Shown here one piece after another: positions 33,069-58,791 of a stretch of DNA of 64,000 nt. Every line of letters starts with the position of its first letter. Within the stretch, counting starts at the first letter, position 1. The stretch is from assembly GCA_012799365.1 (NCBI GenBank), contig JAAZLJ010000087.1:393-64392 (forward strand). The letters run 5' to 3'. The notes under the pieces are model-generated. The model saw only the letters and a program-made list of their open reading frames with translations, was not told the DNA's origin and did no database searches. The DNA is from Syntrophomonadaceae bacterium (lineage in GTDB: Bacteria > Bacillota > Syntrophomonadia > Syntrophomonadales > Syntrophothermaceae). The position numbers and the translations under genes were made by a program.

Positions 33069-33193
33069 ACCATATCCAGCCTTTCATCGTTATAAACCGA
33101 TTATATCATGCCCGGGTGAGACGGCAACTATAACTATTATACGGTTGCGAGTTGGGGACGGTTTTTACCTTAAATGCCAGGCAAGAATCGTCC

Positions 33194-34255
33194 CTAATTT
33201 ACATCAGGAGAGGGGATGCGACGGGATAAGTCTTCTATCCGCTTGAGCACGGATTCCTTCCAACTGCCTTCCAGCAGCTGAGGTTGGGAGTTGGAGATAT
33301 AGACGGGGAGCAATTCGATGTCTTTAACTCCGTCAGGAGTCAGGGTACACTTCATAATCAACCCGGTTTTGGTTTTCTCTCGCTTGAGGTCAAAAACGAA
33401 GTTTCCCAGGCTGTAGAAGATGACTCCGGACTTATATTTCTCTATTCCCTGCAGGCAGTGGGGGTGATGGCCCAGAACCAGGTGGGCGCCGCTGTCTACT
33501 GCCAGACGGGCGGATTCCATCTGAGGCTGACTGGGGAGGTCTTTGTATTCCTGGCCGAAATGGAGGGAGACTACCACTATGTCGGCCATTTTTTTTGCTC
33601 GTTTGATATCTTCGACCAGGTAGTTATTTTCCAGAGGAGCGATGCCGGGTTCGTCAGCTGTGGCTCTGAACATGGGATGAAGCTTGCTCCAAATAAAAGA
33701 GAAGTCACAGTAGGAGAGGAAGGCGATGCGCAGGCCATTTTTGGTGATGATGACTGGTTTACGTGCTTCTTCCAGGTTGGGACCGGCACCGGAATAGAGA
33801 ATTTTGTTCTGCGTAAGGTTTTCGATAGTGTCCAGGAGTACAGGCTTATCGCAGTCACACGCGTGGTTATTGGCCAGAGAAACGATATCGATGCCGGCGT
33901 ATTTCAAGCCTTCGACTGCTTCTGGATTAGGAGCAAACAGGCTATGACGCTGAAATTCTTTATCGGGCAGCCCCAGAGGGGATTCCAGGTTGGCGAAGGT
34001 GATATCGGCTTTTTTCAGGATTTCGGCTGTGTGGACAAATGGGTAGCTGGAACCCTGATTTTGCATGGTTTCGGCAACATTTCTGCCCACCATTATATCT
34101 CCTACTGCTGCCAGGGTTACTTCGTTTTTTCGTGCCAGTCTCAGATTAAACCCCAGGGCCGAGGTAAAGAGTCCGGCTATCAACAGGACGACCAGAACTA
34201 CTCCGCTCACCCGCAGGTAGGTTCGAGGTATATACAAGAAAATCACTGTGCCCAT
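33194..34255 (-). CDS. CapA/PGA_cap family metallophosphatase-like protein
   Basis: N-terminal TM segment; AAVGDIMVGRN, NLESP, SLANNHA and GHHPH motifs. Confidence 0.85.
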   Translation of the reverse strand: MGTVIFLYIPRTYLRVSGVVLVVLLIAGLFTSALGFNLRLARKNEVTLAAVGDIMVGRNVAETMQNQGSSYPFVHTAEILKKADITFANLESPLGLPDKEFQRHSLFAPNPEAVEGLKYAGIDIVSLANNHACDCDKPVLLDTIENLTQNKILYSGAGPNLEEARKPVIITKNGLRIAFLSYCDFSFIWSKLHPMFRATADEPGIAPLENNYLVEDIKRAKKMADIVVVSLHFGQEYKDLPSQPQMESARLAVDSGAHLVLGHHPHCLQGIEKYKSGVIFYSLGNFVFDLKREKTKTGLIMKCTLTPDGVKDIELLPVYISNSQPQLLEGSWKESVLKRIEDLSRRIPSPDVN

Positions 34256-51614: not shown

Positions 51615-51657
51615 GGGCATCCGTTGAGTAAGAGCACGGATGCCCTATTTTTTTTCT
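51615..51657 (+). terminator. Rho-independent terminator after trxA (overlaps the rarA 3' end)
   Basis: GGGCATCCGT-11 nt loop-ACGGATGCCC followed by TATTTTTTTT. Confidence 0.8.
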
Positions 51658-52925
51658 TGACCATTACCAGAAGGTCGGTAAAATTTACGGCCCTGCAGTT
51701 CTGCGGGCAGGTATTCTTGTTCAACCAGACCACCGTAGTCGTGGGGGTACTTGTAGCCAACCCCCTTGCCCAGTAAGTGGGATCGGGGATGAGAACTATC
51801 AGCGATATGAGGAGGAACCGTGATGCCGGAGCTTTGCCGTACGGCGTGAAGAGCTTCATCAATACCAGTTTTACAGGAATTACTTTTGGGGGCCAGGGCC
51901 AGGTAAACCGCAGCTTCGGCCAGGGGAATCCGAGCTTCTGGCAACCCCACCAGTTCCAGAGCATGAGCCGCCGCGGTGGCTACTACCAGGGCCTGAGGGT
52001 CGGCCAGACCTATATCCTCAGCCGCGTGAACCACCAGGCGGCGAGCGATGAAGCGGGCGTCTTCTCCTCCTTCCAGCATTACCGCCAACCAGAATAGAGC
52101 AGCATCCGGGTCGGAACCTCGGATACTTTTAATAAAGGCGGAAATAGTATCATAATGCTGGTCGGCCTTTTTGTCATAATTTATGACCAGCTTACCGTGA
52201 ACGTTGACTACATCCTGGGCGGTAATATGCAAATCTTGACCCTCGTTATACCGGGAAAGGAATATGTGTTCTACCAGGTTGAGGGCCGCGCGGGCATCTC
52301 CTTTGGCAGTGGTGACTATGGCATCCAGGGCCGATTCGGTTATGGTTATCCGGTATTTCCCGAGTCCGCATTCCGGGTCGGTCAACGCCCGGTCAATTAT
52401 GCGAAGGATATCGGACGGATTTAACGGTTGCAGTGTGTAAATACGCATTCTGGATAAGAGGGCGGAATTAACCTCATACAATGGGTTTTCAGTGGTGGCA
52501 CCAATCAGGGTGAGTATGCCCTCTTCTACAAAGGGCAGCAGTACATCCTGTTGAGCTTTGTTGAAGCGATGGATTTCATCCAGGAACAGGATGGTGCGCT
52601 GCTGGTAGAATTTCAAACGTTCCCGGGCATCAGCCGCCATATTGCGGATATCGCGGGTGCTGCTGCTGACCGCTTTGAGATATTGAAAATGAGAGCGGGT
52701 GTGATGGGCGATAATATGGCTCAGGGTGGTTTTACCGGTTCCCGGGGGTCCGAAAAGAATAAAGGAGTGCAGGCGATCCTGTTCGATGATGCGACGTAGG
52801 GGGGCGTTTTTGCCTACCAGGTGCTCCTGACCTGCGATCTCGTCCAGTGTACGGGGACGCATACGGAAGGCCAGTGGTGCTGACTCATTTACAGTGTGGG
52901 CCTGGTGATATGAAAACAGATCCAT
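51645..52925 (-). CDS. rarA: Replication-associated recombination protein A (AAA ATPase RarA/MgsA)
   Basis: GPPGTGKTT Walker A, LFLDEIHRFNK, and the MgsA C-terminal domain (YKYPHDY). Confidence 0.92.
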   Translation of the reverse strand: MDLFSYHQAHTVNESAPLAFRMRPRTLDEIAGQEHLVGKNAPLRRIIEQDRLHSFILFGPPGTGKTTLSHIIAHHTRSHFQYLKAVSSSTRDIRNMAADARERLKFYQQRTILFLDEIHRFNKAQQDVLLPFVEEGILTLIGATTENPLYEVNSALLSRMRIYTLQPLNPSDILRIIDRALTDPECGLGKYRITITESALDAIVTTAKGDARAALNLVEHIFLSRYNEGQDLHITAQDVVNVHGKLVINYDKKADQHYDTISAFIKSIRGSDPDAALFWLAVMLEGGEDARFIARRLVVHAAEDIGLADPQALVVATAAAHALELVGLPEARIPLAEAAVYLALAPKSNSCKTGIDEALHAVRQSSGITVPPHIADSSHPRSHLLGKGVGYKYPHDYGGLVEQEYLPAELQGRKFYRPSGNGQEKK

Positions 52926-53020
52926 GGTTACACCTCACTTTCTGTTCTGCTGCTAATAACCATTATAGACTATTGATTCCACCGGAAAAGCGATAAATAT
53001 GTATTTGCCGTATAATATCG

Positions 53021-53041
53021 GCCAAAGGGACGGTTCTTGTG
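53021..53041 (+). repeat. 21-bp direct repeat, left copy (GCCAAAGGGACGGTTCTTGTG)
   Basis: Perfect match to 53796-53816. Lies 4 nt downstream of a TATAAT hexamer (53011-53016). Confidence 0.95.
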
Positions 53042-53108
53042 ACTTCTGTTAATTAGTGGCGTGCAATTTATGGAAATATTCGGTATAATAAATGCAAGTG
53101 GGGGTGTC

Positions 53109-53504
53109 ATGTTGGATACTAACGAGAAACTAAAATATTGGCTTGAATTAGCCGAGTATGATTTGGAGACGGCTAAAGTGATGCTTGACGGCGGAAGGCA
53201 CTTATATGTTGGCTTTATGTGCCATCAAGTAATTGAAAAAGCCTTAAAGGGGTATTATGTTTCAGTTCTCGCAGATGATCCACCATTTACTCACAACCTC
53301 ACTATATTAGCGAGAAAATCAGGGGTACTTGGAACGCTTTCTGATGAACATAAAGACACTATTGACCTACTTGAGCCACTAAATGTAGAAGCAAGATATC
53401 CTACCGCCAAGGACAAACTATTGAAAGCACTAACCGGGCAAAGATGTATTTCGGTATTGAAAAGGACGGAGGCGTTATTCACATGGATAAAAGCCAGGCT
53501 ATAG
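53109..53504 (+). CDS. HEPN domain protein
   Basis: ATG at 53109 after GGGGGTG. Helical pattern ...AEYDLETAKVML...CHQVIEKALKGY...EARYP typical of HEPN partners of minimal nucleotidyltransferases. Confidence 0.65.
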   Translation: MLDTNEKLKYWLELAEYDLETAKVMLDGGRHLYVGFMCHQVIEKALKGYYVSVLADDPPFTHNLTILARKSGVLGTLSDEHKDTIDLLEPLNVEARYPTAKDKLLKALTGQRCISVLKRTEALFTWIKARL

Positions 53505-53791
53505 AAAAAGCAATAGAGTATTCGAAACTGGTTAATGAAAGAATCAAGGTTCAAAAAATATTGCTATATGGGTCTTATGCTAAAGACAATTGGAACGAAG
53601 AAAGTGACATAGATATTGCCGTAATAGTTGATACGGTGGATGGCGATTTTTTGGACATGGCGTCTATGCTGTATCGGTTGAGAAGACATGTAGATGACAG
53701 AATTGAACCTGTGCTGCTGGAACAAAAAGCGGATCCAAGTGGTTTCCTAAGTGAAATCTTGAAGCATAGCGAAGTAATTTACACAAACTAG
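53483..53791 (+). CDS. Minimal nucleotidyltransferase (MNT) domain protein
   Basis: LYGSYAKDNWNEESDIDIAV (GS...DxD). ATG at 53483 after GGAGG; overlaps HEPN by 22 nt. Confidence 0.78.
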   Translation: MDKSQAIEKAIEYSKLVNERIKVQKILLYGSYAKDNWNEESDIDIAVIVDTVDGDFLDMASMLYRLRRHVDDRIEPVLLEQKADPSGFLSEILKHSEVIYTN

Positions 53792-53795
53792 ACCT

Positions 53796-53816
53796 GCCAA
53801 AGGGACGGTTCTTGTG
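53796..53816 (+). repeat. 21-bp direct repeat, right copy
   Basis: Perfect match to 53021-53041; starts 5 nt after the MNT stop. Confidence 0.95.
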
Positions 53817-53875
53817 TCTGGTACAGGATAAACTGGCAGCAAGGTCTGGACTTACTATCAATGAAATTAAAAAAC

Positions 53876-53920
53876 ATCACCCTCTGCTCAAACGATAGAC
53901 GGGGGTGATTTTTATTTTTT
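53876..53920 (+). terminator. Rho-independent terminator
   Basis: ATCACCC...GGGTGAT stem (with an inner TCT/AGA extension) followed by TTTTATTTTTT. Confidence 0.6.
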
Positions 53921-53953
53921 CGGCGTCCATCAGCGTTCATATGCGGTTTAAGC
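53921..53953 (-). repeat. Repeat module A fragment, reverse orientation
   Basis: CGGCGTCCATCAGCGTTCATATGCGGTTTAAGC is a degenerate reverse complement of TTGAAACCGCAGATGAACGCTGATGGACGC. Confidence 0.75.
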
Positions 53954-54023
53954 CAGGGATAGCGCATTATTTCTGATCGGAGGGCAATACTAATAAAGGC
54001 CTTTTCTGAAAGGAGTAAATTGA

Positions 54024-54488
54024 ATGAACGCCAGGAACCTGCTAGGTATGCCAGTAGTCGTAACCAGTCAGGGAGAATTGATAGGAGAGGTCTGTGATCT
54101 GGTTTTGAAACGAAGCCTGAAGGTGGAGGGCCTGGTGGTGAAGGGGAAGGGCTCACAGAGGTTGGTTAAGTGCCCGGACTTCATTATTGGTGAGGATTCG
54201 GTTTTGGTAACTAACACTGAAGGTTTAAAACCTTACGTAGAGCGGGAAGAATTAAGTTATAAGGGAAACATGGGACAATCGTTACTGGATGTGGAGGGTC
54301 GCGAGGTAGGAATCGTCAGTGACGTGATTCTAGAGCCTGAGACCCGGGAAACCATAGGGGTAGAAATCTCTGAAGGTCTAATTCGGGATTTCCTGGAAGG
54401 TAGGCGTAACCAGGTTTCTCTGGATGACGTTCAGGTCAACGGGATTCGATTGACCGTGTTGACAGGTGAAGGGAGTGCACGTATATGA
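54024..54488 (+). CDS. PRC-barrel domain protein
   Basis: Two PRC-like segments (LLGMPVVVTSQGELIGEVCDLVL and LLDVEGREVGIVSDVILEPETRETIGVEIS). Confidence 0.7.
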   Translation: MNARNLLGMPVVVTSQGELIGEVCDLVLKRSLKVEGLVVKGKGSQRLVKCPDFIIGEDSVLVTNTEGLKPYVEREELSYKGNMGQSLLDVEGREVGIVSDVILEPETRETIGVEISEGLIRDFLEGRRNQVSLDDVQVNGIRLTVLTGEGSARI

Positions 54489-54658
54489 ATTGCCCAGTGT
54501 GTGGTGGAGTTCAGGTGGGTAAGGTGGGTAGTGACCAGTATTACTGCTGGAATTGTTTTATTGAATTTAATACCCGCCGGGGGCAGATGAATTTGTACGA
54601 AGTGGCCGAAGACGGCAGTCTGGTTTCTATGGAAGATTCTTTTGACATCATAAGATAG
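54485..54658 (+). CDS. Small zinc-ribbon protein (57 aa, below the ORF-track cutoff)
   Basis: ATGA overlap with the PRC-barrel stop. MNCPVCGG...YYCWNCF has CPxC and CxxC pairs. Confidence 0.6.
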   Translation: MNCPVCGGVQVGKVGSDQYYCWNCFIEFNTRRGQMNLYEVAEDGSLVSMEDSFDIIR

Positions 54659-54663
54659 AGGGG

Positions 54664-54858
54664 GTGGCTGGTTTAATGGGCAGAAGTTTTTGGTCAGGAA
54701 TGCTAACCGGCGGTATTCTGACGGTTTTGGGTATGATGTATTTTAACGCTTCCCCGGAGGCCCAGAAACAAGTCCGGCAGATGACCGGGCAGGTCCGCAA
54801 CACCGGTAGTATAATTGGTGACATGGGAGGAGAGGTAGCCCGCGTGTGGAAAGACTAG
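54664..54858 (+). CDS. Small membrane protein
   Basis: 64 aa with one hydrophobic helix (SGMLTGGILTVLGMMYF). GTG after GAGGGGG. Overlaps the next gene's start. Confidence 0.45.
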   Translation: MAGLMGRSFWSGMLTGGILTVLGMMYFNASPEAQKQVRQMTGQVRNTGSIIGDMGGEVARVWKD

Positions 54859-55868
54859 GGTCCAAACAATTTCGCTATGTAATATTGTTGTTGGTGGTTT
54901 CGGCCACCATTTATTTTTTATATACGGTTCGGCAAGTTATAACTCCCTTTTTTATTGCGATGGTCTTAGCTTACCTTATAGCTCCGGTGGTAAGCAACAT
55001 AGAGCAGCGGGGATTACGGCGCACCTGGGCTATTCTAATGGTTTATGCGGTATTGGGCCTGGGTCTTTTCTTATTTTTTTGGTATGGAGTACCAGCTATG
55101 GCTGATGAATTGGGCCAGGTCGCCCGGCTGATTCCACATTATGTGGGAGAGGCAGAGAAAATGGCTTATCAGGTGGAGCAGATGACGTTTCCAGCTGACT
55201 CCATCGATAATTTGATTGACGAGACGGTTAACCGATTGCGAGAATATATATATAAGACTCTCAGAGGGTTTTTGGATAGCATTCTGGGATTGGTAAGCAG
55301 CTTGTTTGCAGCAGTTTTTGCTCCTATTTTAGCTTTTTATATCCTTAAAGATTGGGAATTGATCCGAGATAATTTTCTCAACCTGATGACGGTTAAGACC
55401 AGGCAGGAAGTTATCAGGTTGGGACGCAGTATAGATGAAATTTTAAAAGGCTTTATTACCGGGAATCTATTAGTGGCGTTAATAGTGGGGGTGCTTACCG
55501 GGGGGCTGGTGGCCTTGCTGGGGGTAAAGTTTGCCCTGTTGATCGGGCTGATTTGTGGAGTAACCGAGCTGTTTCCTTATTTCGGTCCGATTCTGGGGGC
55601 CATTCCTTCGATTAGTCTGGCCTATGCCCAATCTCCCCGGCTGGCGGTTTACGTGGCTCTGGTTCTGCTGGTGGTGCAGCAGGTGGAAGCTAATCTGCTT
55701 TCCCCTCGTATTCTGGGAGAAAAGGTGGGGCTGCATCCTTTGTTGGTGGTATTTGCTTTATTGGCCGGGGGCAAGCTGTATGGGATCTGGGGGATGCTGC
55801 TGGGGGTGCCGGCAGCTGCAGTTCTCAAGATTCTCAGTTCCCACTTCTACCACCGGATGGTGAGTTAG
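54846..55868 (+). CDS. AI-2E family transporter (UPF0118/PerM-like permease)
   Basis: Multi-TM protein with ...TELFPYFGPILGAIP... signature. Lies upstream of alaS, as with Bacillus yrrI. Confidence 0.85.
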   Translation: MERLGSKQFRYVILLLVVSATIYFLYTVRQVITPFFIAMVLAYLIAPVVSNIEQRGLRRTWAILMVYAVLGLGLFLFFWYGVPAMADELGQVARLIPHYVGEAEKMAYQVEQMTFPADSIDNLIDETVNRLREYIYKTLRGFLDSILGLVSSLFAAVFAPILAFYILKDWELIRDNFLNLMTVKTRQEVIRLGRSIDEILKGFITGNLLVALIVGVLTGGLVALLGVKFALLIGLICGVTELFPYFGPILGAIPSISLAYAQSPRLAVYVALVLLVVQQVEANLLSPRILGEKVGLHPLLVVFALLAGGKLYGIWGMLLGVPAAAVLKILSSHFYHRMVS

Positions 55869-56062
55869 CAGATGTCCATAATACCGGAGGTATCACAGCC
55901 CTCAGCTTTGCTGTGTACTGCGACGTCACTTGCGGCCGGCGCTCAGGCTTCGCCTTCGATACGCCCGGCACTTGCCGAAACATCGTCGGCTTCGTAGGTC
56001 GCTTCGCCGGGTTACCACACTCCCGTATAGAGTTATTTTTATAGCAGCGGTTATAAGCCGCC
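55868..56062. repeat. Mosaic intergenic repeat (C fragment reverse, then module D forward)
   Basis: Hairpin TAATACC-GGA-GGTATCA at 55878-55894. GGCCGGCGCTCAGGCTTCGCCTTCGATACGCCCGGCACTTGCCGAAACATCGTCGGCTTCGTA. Confidence 0.9.
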
Positions 56063-56094
56063 TGGCCGGGTTAACACATTCTTGATAAGATTGA

Positions 56095-58791
<2,697 letters not shown>

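Follow-up and report, generated by a model that had tools for sequence, protein, structure and literature searches.

A perfect 21-mer, GCCAAAGGGACGGTTCTTGTG, stands on either side of a two-gene HEPN-MNT cassette in the window, the name used here for the whole 64,000-nucleotide stretch of Syntrophomonadaceae DNA that was analysed. We consider it probable that the two copies are orphan members of a family of REP/TIR-type hairpins that bracket a horizontally acquired HEPN-MNT pair, and that they are relics rather than a duplication made by an integrase. The repeat pair is an ordinary kind of mobile-DNA relic, and a new cassette-integration system is not indicated.

Placement and edges of the repeat pair

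The 21-mer was found exactly twice, at 53021-53041 and at 53796-53816, both copies being on the plus strand and 775 bp apart from start to start. These positions and this spacing are exactly those of the original prediction, as is the enclosure of a HEPN gene and an overlapping MNT gene by the two copies. The prediction had also held that such a pair could not be due to chance, and indeed none of 100 shuffles of the sequence contained a match, even at up to 3 mismatches. A third copy was absent from the assembly to which the window belongs (2.24 Mb, 267 contigs, 92% complete), again with up to 3 mismatches allowed. The absence of a recombinase from the window was likewise confirmed, as the contig encodes neither a tyrosine recombinase nor a Y1 transposase. 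The features of the locus are as follows.

51645-52925, minus strand: rarA/mgsA, the conserved left neighbour
53021-53041, plus strand: left 21-mer, core portion of a REP/TIR-type hairpin unit, without extended stem arms
53042-53108, plus strand: upstream region of the cassette, conserved in homologous cassettes
53109-53504, plus strand: HEPN gene, putative toxin, 131 aa, PF05168 (E 8e-23)
53483-53791, plus strand: MNT gene, putative antitoxin, 102 aa, PF18765 and PF01909
53793-53825, plus strand: right REP unit, with the 21-mer at 53796-53816 and REP-like arms CCT...TCTGGTACA
53876-53920, plus strand: terminator-like hairpin ATCACCC...GGGTGAT followed by a T-run, found by eye downstream of the cassette
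54024-54488, plus strand: PRC-barrel gene, conserved neighbour on the right, leading a PRC-YrzR-small-AI-2E block

The left 21-mer ends 67 nt before the HEPN ATG, and the right one begins 4 nt past the MNT stop codon. Their identity ends abruptly on both sides: the 5' bases of the two copies are unlike, and beyond the 21-mer position 22 is A versus T, position 23 being C in both. In the left copy the loop core GGGACGGTTCT lies at 53027-53037. REP-like arms extend on both sides of the right copy and on neither side of the left, and those of the right unit match the canonical CCAGCCAAR...GTGGCTGGTA of a Syntrophomonadaceae MAG save for 2 changes. The -5/+5 pair, the first position after the 21-mer, is broken in both window copies (C.A and C.T), and the copies fold weakly, not stably (z-scores of -1.2 and +0.9). 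An Rfam scan of 52800-56300 with E-values up to 5 returned nothing relevant, and a text search of the literature for the core sequence gave unrelated primer matches only.

The HEPN-MNT gene pair

The HEPN protein matches PF05168 alone, with no NCBIfam match. The invariant residues of its subfamily are R30, H39, Q40, E43, K44, H62, N63, R96, Y97 and P98. No R-x4-6-H is found among them and an RX4HXY motif is not visible; as the match is to PF05168 only, identification as a HepT toxin (DUF86, PF01934) was rejected. The MNT protein carries a GS-x10-DID motif. Its score against MntA (NF047752) was 44.2 bits, below the cut-off of 60, and its match to PDB 5yep was weak (E 0.0015). The two genes overlap by 22 nt. 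Upstream of them we found a -10-like TATAAT at 53084-53089 and a GGGGG ribosome-binding site at 53100-53104; the hairpin at 53876-53920 falls outside the loop limit of our scanning method.

The order of HEPN followed by MNT had been regarded as unusual. In all homologous loci examined the HEPN gene comes first, with an overlap of about 22 nt, and this is therefore the normal order for the subfamily. Judging from the protein families and their conservation as an overlapping pair, the two genes form an MNT/HEPN two-gene module (PF01909 or PF18765 plus PF05168), and the putative toxin-antitoxin pair is in itself ordinary. If the two proteins behave as in other MNT/HEPN pairs, HEPN would be neutralised by MNT.

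Two further observations concern the genes. In three conspecific metagenome contigs (L139, L140, L141), a 10-bp deletion (TACTCACAAC, 53288-53297) in the HEPN gene removes the invariant T-H-N and shifts the frame, while the MNT gene and both 21-mers are intact; the putative toxin is thus a pseudogene in part of the population. In L084/L085, L086 and L135, homologues of the pair (68-70% identity) lie just upstream of a Thioredox_DsbH (PF03190) gene. L084 has a 67-aa PF03190 fragment upstream as well, which gives the impression that the 5' end of the gene was split or duplicated by the pair.

Genomic setting and origin of the cassette

The pair had been described as sitting between conserved genes, and this was borne out: the synteny of rarA with the PRC-barrel, YrzR and AI-2E transporter genes is kept through the order, without the HEPN-MNT genes. 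Four relatives (G001, G004, G014 and G049) have an mnmA paralogue in the gap between rarA and the PRC-barrel gene, and in other relatives the gap measures 160-330 bp only. HEPN-MNT genes occupy this position in this species only. The GC content of the cassette is 39.3% versus 49.1% for the genome (1st percentile), and its GC3 is 0.38 versus 0.51-0.55 in the neighbouring genes. The closest HEPN within the class shows 50% identity, and the nearest homologues, with 73-82% identity, are found in other organisms and in unrelated contexts. Composition (GC, GC3) and synteny together support the view of the pair as a lineage-specific, compositionally foreign insert between conserved genes. As for the mnmA paralogue, the same gap in G003 (L024) holds a 52-aa remnant of an mnmA-like paralogue, and the window's genome has a single mnmA copy, 48% identical, on contig C109.

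An empty site with a single 21-mer had been proposed as a check. About 25 conspecific contigs from several metagenomes all carried the cassette and both 21-mers. Exact 21-mer scans of genome and metagenome collections gave no empty site, the matches being other REP contexts or the same species, and in searches with the exact PRC-barrel protein and with the neighbour protein of L059, every place was occupied. The check thus gave no empty site, the conspecifics all being occupied and the relatives too distant. A donor with a near-identical cassette was not found among the HEPN relatives searched in the class and the phylum. The closest genome in that search, G133 (the same locus as L081), had a HEPN of 77% identity and no REP.

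One metagenome contig differed from the others. L143 (ERZ2647959 NODE_2586) is 98% identical to the window rightward from about 53066, in an alignment of 53066-54200, through the cassette, the right 21-mer and the PRC-barrel operon. On its left, a 437-aa AAA/FtsH-like gene, which the window's genome does not have, takes the place of rarA, and the left 21-mer is lacking. The contig may be a rearranged relative or a chimera at 3x coverage, and because of the latter possibility we treat it as unexplained.

A dispersed family of hairpin repeats

The original prediction took the 21-mer for a private duplication of a target or attachment site. Instead, we found it to belong to a dispersed family of REP-type hairpins that is abundant in relatives. 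The 21-mer motif family was present in 35 of 61 genomes of the same order (up to 3 mismatches), often as inverted pairs 37-50 bp apart. The 12-mer RGGGACGGTTCT occurred in 0-104 copies per genome in the 61 relatives, versus 0-2 for the reversed control. The exact 21-mer was also found in Bacillus, Neobacillus, a Eubacterium MAG and a Syntrophomonadaceae MAG, and same-strand tandem doublets of the identical 21-mer were present in L045 (45 bp apart) and in L048 and G041 (37-38 bp apart).

We collected 112 distinct units and examined pairing and covariation on an alignment of 64. The 11-nt core is invariant and lies in a loop, and the flanking positions pair -i with +i. On this alignment, stem positions paired in 84% of cells versus 58% in shuffles, and the stem covariation score was 0.647 versus 0.19 in shuffles and at most 0.17 in controls in which the partners were slid. 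The -5/+5 pair was formed in 94% of the units, with all four Watson-Crick types in use. Since pairing and covariation both exceed the controls, each unit is a hairpin, 23-33 nt in length, in which the stem varies and the loop does not. The predominant stem variant is particular to each genome. Family units also border housekeeping operons, and REPs occupy only a few percent of intergenic regions.

Some relatives offered observations of their own. In the complete genome of G035 (C1:1.80-2.05 Mb, L148-L151), most of the 97 units are inverted doublets packed into about 250 kb, where they part single genes or gene pairs every 1.5-4 kb; the genes between them include SLH/surface proteins, an efflux operon, a RAYT gene and toxin-antitoxin pairs. 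In G011 and G038 (L031, L039) the gap between rarA and the PRC-barrel gene contains other palindromes, GGGGACAGTCCCC and GGGACAGTGGACCTGTCCC, which agree with the published GGGGWSAS TIR motif.

In the window's genome the canonical units are the two 21-mers only. A check for further 21-mers beside other cassettes, as originally suggested, revealed neither a copy elsewhere nor a second cassette. An inverted doublet that belongs to the REP family but has decayed, TTGGGGACGGTTTTTACC...GGCAAGAATCGTCCCTAA, lies at about 33153-33198 of the window, with a similar copy on contig C88. The genome also holds about seven hairpins of the form ATGCAAGtAGgAACGGTTCTTGaCTTGCAT, also written ATGCAAGtAG(G/A)AACGGTTCTTGaCTTGCAT (C13:1612, C101:12325, C150:1891, C160:6283, C179:3820, C200:6623 and C213:10407), whose loop is 1 base off the REP core and whose stem is another. 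These hairpins and the doublet are possibly a diverged or decaying relative of the REP family.

Association with Y1 transposase genes

In about 22 of 30 loci of relatives, inverted units flank Y1_Tnp genes. At L090, a 261-aa Y1_Tnp protein (PF01797) has inverted units on either side and scores 81.6 bits against NCBIfam REP_Tyr_transpos (NF047646; cut-off 80). Homologues of this protein were found in 43 of the 61 relatives, often in multiple copies (up to 13 per genome), and the number of units correlates with the number of transposase genes across genomes (rho 0.57, p 2e-6). In the Syntrophomonadaceae MAG, the exact 21-mer lies directly downstream of such a gene (L048:5500-6267). Taken together, these sequence comparisons identify the repeat as the putative cognate flank of RAYT/TIRYT-type Y1 (HUH) transposase genes, and as a REP-type unit putatively spread in related bacteria by a RAYT/TIRYT tyrosine transposase. 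A Y1_Tnp gene is absent from the window's genome, which has lost, or never possessed, the cognate transposase.

Repeats at the edges of other MNT/HEPN cassettes

We then turned to MNT/HEPN pairs at other loci. Three of 8 close homologues carry the REP family nearby, and five have none. At L059 (82%), two units on the same strand, with one shared stem variant, stand about 290 nt ahead of HEPN and 3 nt past the MNT stop. At L058 (79%), a unit precedes the pair by 110 nt and another, inverted, follows it at 138 nt; L134 (73%) carries a single unit, on the upstream side. An apparent degenerate REP in L059, at the place of the window's left copy, was too weak to use. Unrelated MNT/HEPN pairs are also bracketed. 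In G035 (L149), a pair (PF01909 plus PF08780) has same-strand single units on each side that share 22 nt, with a MazEF pair past the next unit and a RAYT gene 5 kb from the bracketed pair, and in G052 (L170) an MNT-then-HEPN pair has units on both sides. The same-strand single REPs at L059 and at L149 share 22-27 nt.

Bracketing has a low base rate: of the 30 MNT loci ranked highest, 1 was bracketed, and of 15 distant HEPN loci, none. As REPs occupy so little of the intergenic regions, bracketing hints at a mechanism and not at passive hitch-hiking. The right unit meets the MNT gene at different codons in the window's genome (G000) and in L059, indicating that the two junctions arose independently. 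One of the grounds for rejection named in the original prediction was an abundant dispersed repeat without a link to cassette edges. The dispersal seen in relatives comes near to this; still, the sequences at L059, L058, L149 and L170 show an association of the repeat family with MNT/HEPN cassette edges that is, in part, genuine.

Origin of the arrangement

According to the explanation that we favour, a Bacillota donor rich in REPs would have supplied the HEPN-MNT module along with REP units, or the module would have arrived at a REP. The 21-mers would then be leftovers of the REP system, probably with no present function save that of allowing rare repeat-mediated deletion. Since one stem variant predominates in any given genome, a donor would be expected to supply two similar units, and passive co-transfer is for this reason the simplest account. 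It leaves the truncated left unit unexplained. Also against it, identity over exactly 21 nt and a left copy without arms look more like copying than like two full donor REPs, and both copies break the usually conserved -5/+5 pair, with unlike bases. The arms bear on several other schemes as well. With Campbell recombination between two full REPs, both copies would have arms; this was rejected because the left has none. Simple target-site duplication was rejected because it predicts arms split between the copies, while the right has both and the left none. Reconstruction of a 'hybrid REP' parent was set aside, as -5/+5 pairing was not restored. The geometry, originally read as that of a target-site or attachment-site duplication, is consequently not upheld, as the arms are not partitioned as predicted and the repeat is generic and dispersed.

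A version of that reading in which a conventional recombinase or transposase acted in trans, the 21-mer being a duplicated att core or a target that happened to be a REP, would make the segment CIME-like, without an integrase of its own. REPs are known targets of some insertion sequences, a perfect 21-bp direct repeat has the typical length of an attL/attR core, the cassette is foreign, and four tyrosine recombinases are encoded elsewhere in the genome. We nevertheless judge this improbable, since under it the left copy should keep the 5' arm and the right copy the 3' arm, a distribution at odds with the one seen. In addition, cassette-free 21-mers stand in unrelated contexts in Bacillus, Neobacillus, Eubacterium and Syntrophomonadaceae, the genome lacks a second cassette bearing the 21-mer core, and cassette ends vary among homologues. 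A local origin, in which a tandem REP doublet was already present when the module landed in it, or gene conversion or template switching after insertion produced the left 21-mer from the right REP, seems very unlikely. The tandem same-strand doublets of L045, L048 and G041 provide a precedent for it, and the left copy does resemble a partial copy of the complete right unit. A resident doublet, however, is unlikely because the genome is otherwise without canonical REPs, and a conversion tract of one unit is ad hoc. That the repeats are working parts of the toxin-antitoxin operon, such as operators, RNA hairpins recognised by HEPN or MNT, or insulating terminators, we find hardly credible. Their positions just upstream of the promoter and just past the stop codon, and their recurrence near related cassettes, would suit such roles, but most family units adjoin unrelated genes and RAYT genes, five of the 8 close homologues do without repeats, the window copies are not stably folded (see the z-scores above), and a separate terminator-like hairpin is present at 53876-53920.

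Another possibility, which we regard as rather unlikely, is capture by a Y1 transposase. A RAYT/TIRYT enzyme acting in trans, in a donor or an ancestor, would have excised the REP and its cargo as a single-stranded circle and pasted it at a REP, with one same-strand REP hairpin serving as left end and the other as right end, as in an IS200/IS605 element, a scheme that is integron-like with HUH chemistry. Such 'peel and paste' between same-strand hairpins would account for the recurring geometry: the copies are on the same strand here, at L059 and at L149 (22 identical nt); REPs lie 3-4 nt from the MNT 3' end in G000 and L059 as independent events; REPs are otherwise rare near MNT/HEPN loci (the 1 of 30 and 0 of 15 above); and a RAYT gene stands 5 kb from the G035 example. 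On the other hand, the cassette ends are not fixed, the left REP preceding HEPN by 67 nt here and by about 290 nt in L059, and L143 has the same right junction, yet its homology is lost at about 53066 and not at the repeat. REPs are missing at 5 of 8 close homologues and border ordinary housekeeping genes equally, and their orientation relative to the genes is unlike between G000 and G035. Reconstructed 'parent' REPs do not regain stem pairing, the transposase is absent from the window's genome, and no instance was found of one cassette at two sites. The bracketed pairs of G035, L059 and G052 keep capture a minority possibility. The broader proposition, that same-strand pairs of GGGACGGTTCT hairpins delimit toxin-antitoxin cassettes which RAYT/TIRYT enzymes would move as single-stranded circles to other hairpins, as a Bacillota analogue of integrons, appears unlikely. 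If cassette capture were true, the window would represent an orphan cassette in a genome without the enzyme.

On the preferred explanation, orphan REP copies around an acquired module, the 21-mer is a relic of a selfish repeat, and to annotate it as an att site or as a sign of a new integration mechanism would be mistaken. The results add weight to the case for hairpin repeats cognate to the HTH-bearing RAYT/TIRYT branch in Bacillota. Such repeats in Firmicutes were undescribed in the surveys of 2013 and 2018 (PMC3733652, PMC6006769), and Firmicutes are unmentioned in the former (PMC3733652). The MNT/HEPN pairs bracketed on the same strand also pose a testable question, namely whether Y1 transposases can move DNA between two REPs.

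Comparison with known systems

Integron cassettes (an ORF plus attC) resemble the present segment in being small foreign cargo, often toxin-antitoxin genes, with folded hairpins in the same orientation. Unlike them, the segment has no attC structure (R''-L''...L'-R' with GTTRRRY), the window is without attI, array and IntI, as judged from a contig without a tyrosine recombinase, and the repeat belongs to a Y1 transposase system. An integron cassette was therefore rejected, the GGGACGGTTCT-loop hairpin not being attC. IS200/IS605 elements and their cargo derivatives are similar in that two same-strand hairpins bound a segment, without inverted terminal repeats or a classical target duplication. 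This two-hairpin architecture is one moved by Y1 transposases, and mobility here is putative. The present segment differs in having no tnpA or tnpB inside, and its ends are near-identical REP units instead of distinct left and right ends.

With regard to the cargo, other MNT/HEPN pairs (type VII HepT-MntA of Shewanella, PDB 5yep; HI0073/HI0074) likewise have a GS-x10-DxD MNT coupled translationally with HEPN, and the MNT protein gives the weak match to MntA mentioned above (44 bits; PDB 5yep, E 0.0015). In contrast to the type VII system, the present HEPN belongs to PF05168 and not to HepT/DUF86, and the gene order is HEPN then MNT.

The REP/BIME (REPIN) sequences of E. coli and Pseudomonas with their RAYT (TnpA-REP) share with the present family short intergenic palindromic units, often in inverted doublets, a cognate Y1 transposase gene between units, genome-specific variants, and a copy number that follows the presence of the transposase. 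The present family, however, is without a GTAG or CGTC tag, its conserved part is a large loop and not the foot of the stem, and several transposase genes, up to 13, often occur in one genome.

The best-fitting published description is the TIRtron/TIRYT class (Di Nocera et al. 2013, PMC3733652), for which a GGGGWSAS motif was reported. TIRYT have been equated with TnpA_Y1 subclass 2.1, which was reported without REP-like hairpins (Quentin et al. 2018, PMC6006769). The present unit departs from that report, as it is a hairpin whose stem covaries and whose loop is invariant. Moreover, the repeat GGGGACGG fits GGGGWSAS inexactly, and the window has two same-strand orphan units around a toxin-antitoxin pair in place of a transposase. 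In common with the TIRtron/TIRYT class are a RAYT-like Y1 (HUH) transposase, about 255-261 aa long and extended at its C-terminus, with inverted repeats on either side, the membership of these flanking repeats in a moderately abundant dispersed family, and a repeat core that begins with GGGG.
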